NCBI RefSeq assembly: GCF_024502345.1
Contig: NZ_JALDNN010000001.1
Source of the DNA: Escherichia coli
GTDB taxonomy: Bacteria > Pseudomonadota > Gammaproteobacteria > Enterobacterales > Enterobacteriaceae
Reading direction: 5' to 3' (one strand)
Length of the DNA: 64,000 nucleotides
A program made the translations under genes and the position numbers. Under the pieces are notes generated by a model that did no database searches, had not been told where the DNA came from, and saw only the letters and a list, made by a program, of their open reading frames with translations. This document shows, one piece after another, positions 6,978-9,991 of the stretch (within the stretch, counting starts at the first letter, position 1; every line of letters begins with the position of its first letter).

Positions 6978-7415
6978 GATTATGTAATCGCCTAAACTCT
7001 TTGATAGCCGACGTTTCAAGCAACATGGATTTGCCTGAATTTAAAGCAGCCATTAATTTATCAAGGGACTGTGCGAACTTACCTGCTGGGTCTGTCGGTG
7101 TATCACGTGTTGTCGAAACAAAATGATAGATGTACATTTCATCTTCATGCTTCGTATTAATGTAAGTAAGATGAATAGCAACCGCATACGCAGGGCCACC
7201 GGACTCACTAAATTCATCACCAACAATTAAGAAATCACCAAAACCATTCATACCCTCTTCTTCATAATTAAGATGAAGATCTGAAAAGAACTCAGAATCG
7301 GGATGGTCAGCATTTCGTCTTTTTTCAAAGCCATCTTTAATTAAAATTCTTTCTGAACCCGAAAAATGTTTTCGATAAGCTTTAGAACAATAGTTAGAAA
7401 TAAATACATGTTTGT
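6978..7415 (-). pseudogene. Partner gene B, C-terminal segment (separated from the N-terminal segment by IS3; 3' end cut by IS1)
   Basis: ORF ...HVFISNYCSKAYRKHFSGSERILIKDGFEKRRNADHPDSEFF...EFRRLHNR is in frame with segment 8674..9082 once IS3 and one TGT copy are removed; the last codon and the stop codon lie inside the IS1 terminus (6973..6977). Confidence 0.7.
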
Positions 7416-7445
7416 TGATCCTACCCACGTAATATGGACACAGAC

Positions 7446-8312
7446 CTAAGCGAGGTTCTGGTTTTCAAATTGTTCCGGACTGAGGCCGCCACACCAACTG
7501 TGCCGCCGCCACCGATTGTAATCACATTCGATATAATTAAACACCGTTGCCCGCATTATTTCCCGGCTGATAAAGTGTTCTCCATGGATACATTCCACTT
7601 TCAGCGAATGAAAGAAGCTTTCCACGCAGGCATTATCGTAGCAGCAACCTTTTGCGCTCATACTTCCACGCAGATTATGCCGCTTCAGTTGCGCCTGATA
7701 ATCTGCTGAACAGTACTGGCCTCCACGGTCCGTGTGAACGATAACGTTCCGGGGCCTCTTACGCCGCCACAGCGCCATCTGCAGGGCATCGCAGGCCAGT
7801 TGCGCCGTCATGCGTGGCGACATTGACCAGCCAATAACGGCACGTGACCACAGGTCAATGACCACTGCCAGATACAGCCAGCCTTCATCTGTACGTAAGT
7901 ACGTGATGTCTCCTGCCCACTTCTGGTTCGGGCCACTGGCGTAAAAATCCTGCTCCAACAGATTTTCTGACACAGGCAGGCCGTGTGCGCGGTAGCTGAC
8001 CGGGCTGAACTTCCGGGAGGCCTTTGCCCTCAGTCCCTGACGGCGCAGGCTTGCCGCCACGGTTTTTACGTTAAAGGGGTAACCCTGAGCACGCAGTTCA
8101 TCCGTCAGGCGTGGGGCACCGTAACGCTGTTTTGACCGGGTAAAAGCCGCGAGGACAACGCTGTCGCAGTGTTGGCGGAACTGCTGACGCGTGCTTATCC
8201 TTGTCCGCCGCTGACACCACGTATACCAGCCGCTGCGGGCCACCCGGAGCACGCGGCACATTGCTTTGATGCTGAACTCAGCCTGATGTTTTTCAATAAA
8301 GACATACTTCAT
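7446..8312 (-). CDS. insF: IS3 transposase OrfB / InsF (288 aa)
   Basis: [36 protein letters not shown]... recognised as IS3 InsF with integrase-core motifs. Confidence 0.9.
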
Positions 8313-8608
8313 TTCAGGCGCTTCGCGAAGTATGTCGCGGCCTTTTGGAGGATAGCCAGCTCTTCATCCCGTTCTGCCAGCTGGCGTTTGAGACGTGCAA
8401 TCTCGGTAGACATCTCCAGTTCACGTTCAGAAGACGTCTGCTGATTTTGCTGTTTACTGCGCCAGTTGTAGAGCTGTGATTCATACAGGCTGAGTTCACG
8501 GGCTGCGGCAGTAACACCGATGCGTTCAGCAAGCTTCAGGGCTTCACTGCGAAATTCAGGCGAATGCTGTTTACGGGGTTTTTTACTGGTTGATACTGTT
8601 TTTGTCAT
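8309..8608 (-). CDS. insE: IS3 OrfA / InsE (99 aa)
   Basis: ORF contains [32 protein letters not shown]...; start set at the MTKTV methionine. Confidence 0.85.
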
Positions 8609-8673
8609 GTGAGTCACCTCTGACTGAGAGTTTACTCACTTAGCCGCGTGTCCACTATTGCTGGGTAAGATCA

Positions 8674-9082
8674 TGTATCCATCCCCAAATCTTTCATGTA
8701 AAGCTTTTGGCTCATCAAACCCGGCATGAATAAAGGTGACTTCATGAACGAGATCTGAATGAAGGAGATTATCAACCTTAGCAATAGTCATACTCTTATC
8801 AAGAAGTATTCCTACAGAAATTTTTTCATACTTACTAAATTCATTTTTTAATAATTGAGCTATACTTTGTCCATCGGTAGAGTGATCACCACATGCCGGA
8901 TTAATGATGACAATAGCCCTACCATCATTTTCTTTTATTGTTTTCAGTGTTCGCTCAAGACCATTGAGAGCCTCTCTCACAGGCTCTATAATTGGAGTAA
9001 AACCTGCCTCAGCCATTACATTAGCAGTGTCTCTAATAGCCAACAGTTCAAATTGTTTCCCACGAAAATAAGGATAATACAT
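8674..9082 (-). pseudogene. Partner gene B, N-terminal segment (136 codons) interrupted by IS3
   Basis: MYYPYFRGKQFELLAIRDTANVMAEAGFTPIIEPVREALNGLERTLK...HERFGDGY then reads into the IS3 end; starts 6 nt after the stop of gene A on the same strand. Confidence 0.7.
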
Positions 9083-9088
9083 AGTTTG

Positions 9089-9991
9089 TTACTCCCATAA
9101 CAATGCCTCATTAAGAGGAAGCTGCATAGTATTAATTAATCGCTCATGATCCTTAGAGCGAAGCTGAATAGAAAGTGCCGCTGGTTGTAAAGACTTTGGT
9201 AAGTTGAGAATCAACTCTCTTAAAGAAAGTAAACTTCTGCTTTCCTTTAAAGTTTTTAGCATTAAATTATATACAGAAACAGGTGGTAGGCCACTAAACT
9301 CTTCTTTTAAGAAACCATGCATTTGGGTATTCGGTAAGTCGGGGATTTTTATACCTAACTCGGAAGCAATAATTTTCGCCTCATTAATTCTTAATGATTC
9401 AAAGATTGTTACAGGGCATATAAAGTCTAAAACTTCTTCAGCTTCTCTTATAGTAGATATTCGATTCCAACGGGTTAAACTCAATACCCCAATGGAAGAT
9501 TCAGTCGTTTTCAGCACATCATCTAAATGTTCTGAACCTGCTATGACATAGATTTTCCCAAATGCTTTACGGTAGTTCGTTATTTGGTTTTGTAGACGGC
9601 TTAATGAATCCCTTTCGGATTTTATTTCGTAAACCGTTCCAGTTCCGTTCAGTATGATGAGATCAGCTTTGCAAGAGCCGATTCTGAATTCATTAAGCAT
9701 ACAGGCAGTTCTTAATGAATGCTTCCCAAGCAAAAGATTGTGTGTGAGCGCAGAACGATAAACATACTCATTCCGCAAGCCTGTTTGTCTAAGTAAGGCA
9801 AATGCCTCATTGAAGGCTTCACCAACGGTAATCCCAAGTGTCTCTGCATGGTCAAAAAGCTCGGTCTCTCGGAGAGAACGAGCAAACATAGGAGACTGCC
9901 CTCTTTTCGCTATCTCGCTGAAGACGGAAGCGGAAAAAAGTCTACTTAAAGCAGTCAGTTGAAAAGAGCTAAGTTCGTTACTTCTCATCAT
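9089..9991 (-). CDS. Hypothetical protein with PD-(D/E)xK nuclease-like motif (300 aa), gene A of a two-gene module
   Basis: Intact 300-aa ORF; E101...D110 (KADLIIL)...E122-I-K124 (VYEIKSE) fits the restriction-endonuclease-fold signature; AT-rich codon usage; tight operon with gene B. Confidence 0.6.
   Translation of the reverse strand: MMRSNELSSFQLTALSRLFSASVFSEIAKRGQSPMFARSLRETELFDHAETLGITVGEAFNEAFALLRQTGLRNEYVYRSALTHNLLLGKHSLRTACMLNEFRIGSCKADLIILNGTGTVYEIKSERDSLSRLQNQITNYRKAFGKIYVIAGSEHLDDVLKTTESSIGVLSLTRWNRISTIREAEEVLDFICPVTIFESLRINEAKIIASELGIKIPDLPNTQMHGFLKEEFSGLPPVSVYNLMLKTLKESRSLLSLRELILNLPKSLQPAALSIQLRSKDHERLINTMQLPLNEALLWE

Follow-up and report, generated by a model that had tools for sequence, protein, structure and literature searches.

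The stretch of DNA analyzed here, referred to as the window, comprises 64,000 nucleotides (nt) of Escherichia coli sequence (NCBI RefSeq assembly GCF_024502345.1, contig NZ_JALDNN010000001.1) and carries, in the island at the tRNA gene leuX, two neighboring genes on the minus strand, termed A and B below. Gene A is intact and encodes a predicted nuclease of the sce7726 family, to which the cII protein of P4 also belongs. Gene B, of the sce7725 family, is interrupted by one insertion sequence (IS) and truncated by a second (Table 1). The module in the window is almost certainly the dead remnant of a cassette of three genes, consisting of A, B, and a gene for a RES family NAD+ phosphorylase that has been lost. 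The locus is read here, with moderate confidence and from sequence comparison, as what is left of a horizontally transferred cassette whose intact form probably serves in phage defense.

Gene B starts with an ATG at 9082, separated by 6 nt from the TAA stop codon of gene A, and is interrupted after 409 nt by IS3; E. coli records annotate the inserted gene as an IS3 family transposase. A 3-bp (base pair) target duplication, ACA, flanks the element at 8674..8676 and 7413..7415. Removal of IS3 with one copy of ACA joins 9082..8674 to 7412..6978 and yields a single open frame of 281 codons. This frame meets IS1 at 6978 and takes its TAA stop from that element; because intact orthologues have 310 amino acids (aa), the last 29 codons of B are lost in the window. 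The IS3-interrupted version was not found in any of 5,426 complete E. coli RefSeq genomes. The first-pass annotation, made by a model from the DNA letters without database searches, had described the inactivation of B by IS3 and IS1, the coordinates, and the joined frame, and all of this is confirmed in the sequence.

On the far side of IS1, positions 1333..6209 of the window are collinear with uxuR-uxuB-uxuA of E. coli W409 as far as the 3' end of fimH. Between those flanks, W409 holds fimH-fimD', an IS1, an integrase fragment, the RES gene, and the end of B. An IS1-associated deletion in the window has therefore taken RES, the end of B, the integrase fragment, and fim genes. Compared with W409, the IS1 junction implies that the type 1 fimbrial genes fimD-fimH have been lost from the interval separating uxuA from the leuX island. 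W409 also has an IS1 at the corresponding position, but of a different variant (only 94.6% identity to the IS1 of the window). Only A can still be made, and the module is thus unable to work in the window. The observation that the insertions had spared the nuclease was correct insofar as A is intact, but the argument built on it carries little weight, since the likely effector, RES, is lost.

Table 1. Features of the cassette remnant and of the surrounding leuX island, with positions in the window
Feature	Positions	Strand	Basis or remarks
Upstream region of the operon (promoter and 5' untranslated region presumed)	9992..10140	minus	Conserved relative to intact E. coli and Salmonella cassettes
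Gene A, sce7726 / Phage_P4_cII family, 300 aa, intact	9089..9991	minus	Open reading frame (ORF) list and direct reading
Gene B, 5' part, codons 1-136 plus 1 nt, sce7725 family	8674..9082	minus	NF033831 on the rejoined protein
IS3, complete, 1258 bp, inside gene B	7416..8673	minus	Terminal inverted repeats, orfA/orfB ORFs
Gene B, 3' part, to codon 281	6978..7412	minus	99.5-100% identity to intact E. coli copies
IS1, 768 bp, truncates gene B	6210..6977	minus	Both IS1 ends identified in the sequence
hsdM fragments, type I restriction-modification methylase, decayed	12128..13254		Two ORFs, 91 and 267 aa
Integrase, P4-type, at leuX	18842..20092		
tRNA-Leu(CAA)	20282..20366		leuX island

The family assignment of the two genes, first suggested from recall as sce7726/sce7725, is well founded. 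Gene A scores 176.7 bits (E 4.3e-52) against the NCBIfam model sce7726_fam (NF033832), for which the curated cut-off is 70. Rejoined B scores 309.8 bits (E 2.7e-92) against sce7725_fam (NF033831), with a curated cut-off of 60, and covers profile positions 1-286 of 312, the C-terminus being the part that is missing. Because both scores lie above the cut-offs, A and B are real genes and not chance ORFs.

Uninterrupted modules are held by about 18 of the 5,426 complete E. coli genomes, at 97-99.6% identity, and the leuX island of Salmonella houtenae carries the same sce7726, sce7725, and RES unit. Intact operons are found, for example, in strains W409 (proteins WP_240764654.1, WP_000291755.1, and WP_000598935.1) and AHS8C65RI. 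In these intact units of E. coli and Salmonella, the third gene, for a 341-aa "RES family NAD+ phosphorylase", begins directly at the stop codon of B or overlaps it. Related loci were defined as the best 80 of 317 B-encoding stretches (51-97% identity), drawn from one genome each of 100,044 species, and they come from Proteobacteria, Actinobacteria, Acidobacteria, Chlorobi, Nitrospina, and Gemmatimonadetes. The order A, B, RES is kept in all 80 loci and the flanking positions never hold another gene. All genes are co-directional, with median gaps of 6 nt between A and B and 4 nt between B and RES. All three genes are present in 78 loci; in the other 2, the sequence begins too near B to hold A, and in 3 further loci a sequence end cuts a flanking gene. 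The identity between phyla is about 60% for B and RES, and the pairwise distances of the A, B, and RES proteins correlate (r = 0.86-0.88), which indicates that the three move and evolve as one unit. The expectation that homologues of A and B would be neighbors in other genomes thus held throughout, but the initial description of a "two-gene module" does not fit this clade, where RES is the third member. The distribution is patchy, both among E. coli genomes and among the species searched. Plasmids seldom carry the cassette (15 of 72,556 records), and phage records hardly ever do.

The first-pass view could still be upheld if the unit were a two-gene pair of nuclease and partner and RES an independent single-gene aRES, the standalone defense protein discussed below, that merely travels along. 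In its favor, sce7725 and sce7726 form a pair in NCBIfam, aRES proteins need no partner to function, and two-gene pairs without RES do exist among distant relatives at 31-38% identity to B (loci L091, L093, and L009). However, RES follows B in every locus at ≥51% identity with a median 4-nt gap or overlap, its distances correlate with those of A and B (r 0.87-0.88), and the association survives transfer between phyla. RES also stands after B in relatives at 35-44% identity, namely, at 44% (L094), 40% (L095), and 35% on a Moraxella plasmid. With order and spacing fixed across phyla, mere adjacency of an aRES gene is unlikely, and a two-gene unit with a passenger RES is considered improbable. 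Since the distant relatives show both forms, A and B appear as the core of the cassette and RES as a frequent but not universal member. A copy of B on an Enterococcus plasmid has neither a recognizable cII nor RES.

Gene A is predicted to be a nuclease of the PD-(D/E)xK fold. Its AlphaFold2 model, with a predicted local distance difference test (pLDDT) score of 93.8, shows an alpha-beta-beta-beta-alpha-beta core at about residues 75-185, followed by an all-helical C-terminal domain. The modeled core matches the restriction-endonuclease fold, in agreement with the nuclease fold proposed from the motif, and places the D...(D/E)-x-K residues on strands 2 and 3. The motif residues E101, D110, E122, and K124 had been located correctly and do not vary among 32 relatives, which include P4 cII and extend down to 25% identity. 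Searches of Pfam-A with A gave only a marginal match, to PDDEXK_3 at E 0.17, and a profile search of PDB sequences gave nothing meaningful.

The relationship of A to P4 cII is supported from several sides. Homologues of A bear the precomputed PF26915 (Phage_P4_cII) label. P4 cII is itself a member of the sce7726 family (NCBIfam E 2.5e-44), with which its RefSeq label agrees, and aligns with A in a tblastn comparison at 33.7% identity over 96 aa of the nuclease core. The PADLOC model "cll" matches A with E 7.5e-20, over profile positions 17-115 of 265 only. The P4 cII gene was defined genetically. The cassette was also considered as cargo of a P4 satellite; this was rejected, as no other P4 genes (alpha, sid, delta, psu, and epsilon) accompany A in the window or in intact relatives.

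The AlphaFold2 model of rejoined B (pLDDT 96.7) shows alternating beta and alpha elements in a TIM-barrel-like fold, and its closest structural matches are metabolic TIM barrels. Pfam-A gives only marginal matches, to MGS and DacZ_T at E ~0.08-0.09, and the profile search of PDB sequences finds no solved relative; none of the Pfam, structure, and PDB profile searches ties B to a particular enzyme family. Foldseek against AFDB50 returns only other sce7725 proteins among the matches listed. The family is large, with B homologues forming 5,548 clusters at 90% identity (E <= 1e-3), and well conserved, with an identity of about 60% among E. coli, Bradyrhizobium, Halomonas, and Actinobacteria. The polar residues R7, K9, E12, E33, N61, H119, D163, N170, D196, H217, H233, K292, and H298/299 are invariant and lie mostly at or just past strand ends in the model. 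The active sites of TIM barrels are found at strand ends. Because the invariant polar residues of B cluster where such sites lie, the modeled protein is probably an enzyme.

One AFDB entry, A0A317SAQ9, is a 761-aa "RES domain-containing protein", attributed to the truffle Tuber magnatum, with 55% identity to B over 294 columns. It represents either a fusion of B with RES or bacterial contamination with merged gene models. If the fusion is genuine, it would speak for a functional connection of B with RES.

The P4 affinity of A and the barrel fold of B also permit a reading without any conflict system, in which A remains from a decayed P4-like satellite, where it served in lysogeny or regulation, and B is an unrelated metabolic TIM-barrel enzyme. 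Homology of A to P4 cII, the P4-type integrase at leuX in the same island, and the metabolic enzymes among the best structural matches of B are in line with it. This reading is nevertheless very improbable: no other P4 genes are found near A, the catalytic residues of the nuclease are invariant, and the cassette occurs in phyla without P4-like elements. Moreover, B matches no specific enzyme family and is always paired with A, and the patchy distribution is not that of housekeeping genes.

The connection to P4 extends to B. In P4, cII belongs to the system gop-beta-cII (Rst_gop_beta_cll in PADLOC; Rousset et al. 2022), which protects against lambda and P1 and in which gop is toxic without beta (PMC9122126). 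An accessory gene of a phage sets off the toxicity of gop-beta-cII (bioRxiv 10.1101/2023.04.06.535777). An hhalign comparison of the sce7725 and beta family profiles gives a probability of 80% and E 1.4e-5 over the N-terminal 144 columns, and the N-terminal motif Y-x-P-x-x-R-x-[RK]-x-x-E is common to both families. On this alignment and motif, B is probably a distant homologue of beta. The arrangement of gop-beta with a convergent cII is kept in Pseudomonas aeruginosa and Methylibium, which makes a cII-type nuclease the constant partner of beta and sce7725 proteins (300-355 aa). No gop-like gene was seen in the triad loci examined. The P. aeruginosa homologues of gop-beta-cII (L097-L099) adjoin genes of filamentous-phage type (Phage_Coat_B and DUF2523) and a HigB/HTH (helix-turn-helix) pair; outside P4 satellites, gop-beta-cII may thus ride on other integrated elements.

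The third protein can be described from the intact copies. The E. coli RES orthologue matches PF08808 (RES) with E 1.2e-17 and PF18870 (HEPN_RES_NTD1) with E 2.9e-4, and it has no match in NCBIfam or PADLOC. The N-terminus of the triad RES proteins forms a zinc ribbon of four to five cysteines. Residues C5, C6, C9, C30, C33, R161, R163, E209, and S304 are invariant. A fusion architecture of zinc ribbon, HEPN, and RES was described by Anantharaman et al. 2013 (PMC3710099). Osterman et al. 2026 describe aRES as a standalone defense protein that acts by depleting NAD+, which it converts to nicotinamide and ADPR-1''-phosphate (ADPR, ADP-ribose), and define it by a length of 300-600 aa with PF18870 and a RES domain (bioRxiv 10.64898/2026.01.28.702374). 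The Methods of that paper print the RES accession as PF00808; PF08808 is used here. Over its full length, the E. coli triad RES can be aligned with the experimentally tested aRES of E. coli UC5 (25% identity, E 1e-14); at 341 aa, this orthologue of the deleted gene has both aRES domains within the defined length. It is not standalone, as it comes third behind A and B in the 80 related loci. Table S2 of the aRES census includes three genomes in which the triad was found, those of Thiorhodococcus drewsii AZ1, Propionicicella superfundia DSM 22317, and Tistlia consotensis USBA 355, and its count of standalone proteins thus probably takes in RES proteins of triads. That part of the census is operonic is suggestive only, as it rests on a match at the level of genomes and not of genes.

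The surroundings of the intact cassettes add to this picture. In E. coli, the neighbors include Kiwa-like, Pycsar-effector, TIR, and caspase genes, and in distant genomes 3 of 10 sampled neighbors are SoFic, a retron RT-Toprim (RT, reverse transcriptase), and a type III restriction enzyme. The defense-island context that had been proposed for the module is thus seen among its relatives, where neighbors are often defense genes, and the island setting in the window (tRNA, integrase, and decayed hsdM) is as first described. In two Bradyrhizobium loci (L007 and L008), a co-directional set of genes lies directly upstream of the triad and encodes a protein kinase, a helicase of the UvrD-like kind, and a 450-aa protein without annotation; this set may be another candidate defense module. 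From its sequence relationships and gene neighborhood, the three-gene cassette is rather likely to be a defense system.

The main rival reading takes the cassette as an addiction (toxin-antitoxin) module that stabilizes islands or plasmids, with RES as the toxin and B and/or A as the neutralizing partner. The toxicity of gop without beta would suit such a role, as would the location of the cassette on islands beside integrases and sometimes on plasmids. Both flanking components, however, have validated defense homologues, cII in gop-beta-cII and aRES, and the neighbors are often defense genes. The rarity of the cassette on plasmids also argues against addiction, as does the lack of any Xre/HTH antitoxin gene within the cassette in E. 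coli and the related loci examined. An addiction module is considered unlikely on these grounds, and defense and addiction roles may coexist.

If the cassette is defensive, its intact form would probably act as an anti-phage system of the abortive-infection type. The A-B core, corresponding to cII and beta of P4, would detect infection or restrain the effector. RES would be the effector, converting NAD+ to nicotinamide and ADPR-1''-phosphate in the manner of aRES, and the growth of the infected cell would stop. Gene A may also provide a second effector that cuts DNA, which would be the sole effector in the two-gene relatives. This division of labor, with RES as the effector and A and B sensing or restraining, is drawn by analogy and is offered as a tentative scheme.

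A broader and speculative possibility is that sce7726-sce7725 and P4 cII-beta descend, as separate branches, from a single ancient core of PD-(D/E)xK nuclease and TIM-barrel enzyme. Such a core might, again as a conjecture, arm swappable toxic partners, be it Gop, an aRES-type NAD+ phosphorylase, or none. It is similarly conjectural that the barrel protein is a true enzyme, sensing or producing a small phosphorylated ligand, and not a passive antitoxin. If these ideas are true, gop-beta-cII, some of the proteins so far counted as standalone aRES, and sce7725/sce7726 pairs that lack annotation and number in the thousands would belong to one defense superfamily, and this would bring new sensing chemistry.

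Several points weigh against a defensive three-gene system related to gop-beta-cII. The literature searched holds no phage test of any triad member, and the roles of sensor, regulator, and effector are wholly inferred. Since aRES proteins function alone, it is not evident why RES should need A and B, and because some distant relatives are without RES, the roles of A and B cannot be the control of RES alone. An addiction role predicts an identical genomic pattern. The homology of B to beta is moderate and covers half of the protein only: the BLASTP comparison of B with P4 beta is not significant, and neither Pfam Beta_protein (PF14350) nor the PADLOC beta models match B. The comparison with PADLOC models, recommended in the first-pass annotation, succeeded for A with the "cll" model and failed for the other two proteins, as B and the triad RES have no match in PADLOC 2.0.

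The island around the remnant in the window is rich in insertion sequences. Besides IS1 and IS3, it contains a short IS3-family transposase fragment at 11761-11967 and a 322-aa transposase ORF at 16576-17544, which we take to be IS5-like. Resemblance to the intact cassettes of E. coli and Salmonella ends at position 10140 of the window. Just upstream of the cassette, in a stretch of ~30% GC, lies a 133-aa ORF (10534-10935) that has no NCBIfam match and that is regarded as different cargo because it lies beyond this limit. The hsdM fragments match only parts of the 515-position hsdM profile, and neither hsdS nor hsdR was seen near them in the window. An intact autotransporter of the AIDA-I/MisL type (1062 aa) follows at 13318-16506, with an 11-copy Pro-Asp-Asn (PDN) repeat preceding its beta-barrel domain.

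As the copy in the window is dead, it says little about the strain beyond the IS-driven decay of the leuX island. The significance lies in the intact relatives, which join two validated defense components, P4 cII and aRES, via an uncharacterized TIM-barrel-like protein. The families of A and B are catalogued in NCBIfam, as PF26915 in Pfam, and as phrog_984 and phrog_34524 in PHROGs. The literature naming sce7725 or sce7726, as sampled, only lists the names. Searches on RES with TIM barrel or defense gave no description of the triad, and for PF14350, PF26915, and "beta family protein" the literature search brought up nothing beyond papers on TGF-beta and importin. No paper was found that describes the operon, its linkage to RES, or its tie to gop-beta-cII; the intact form is an undescribed operonic combination of known defense parts. 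Because B and RES are missing from PADLOC 2.0, current annotation pipelines would miss the cassette. It offers a handle on the roles of cII and beta in gop-beta-cII and on the way in which a RES NAD+ phosphorylase is kept silent until infection.

Four sets of known families and systems invite comparison with the cassette. A and B are clear members of the annotation families sce7726 (NF033832), sce7725 (NF033831), and PF26915, and the pairing of the two genes defines the gene neighborhood of these families, which have no assigned function. The RES-Xre toxin-antitoxin modules resemble the triad in that a RES enzyme is encoded in a small operon with partners that possibly restrain it. In contrast to these modules, the triad has no Xre/HTH antitoxin, its partners being a nuclease and a TIM-barrel-like protein, and its RES protein has the zinc ribbon and NTD1 region that the short toxins of toxin-antitoxin modules do not have. 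With aRES, the third protein of the triad shares the architecture of zinc ribbon, HEPN/RES-NTD1, and RES, with the catalytic residues kept. It differs in that it is operonic behind A and B and shows only 25% identity to the tested aRES, and in the window the gene is absent. The last comparison is with gop-beta-cII of P4. Its third gene encodes a 133-aa Gop upstream of beta, whereas the triad has a 341-aa RES downstream of B, and its cII is convergent to gop-beta, whereas the triad genes are co-directional and tightly spaced. Beyond these differences, both systems consist of three genes with a toxic component and are sited in the variable cargo of integrated elements. In both, a cII-type nuclease is paired with a protein of 300-355 aa that shares the N-terminal motif, and A and cII belong to the same family, with the E...D...ExK residues invariant in both.

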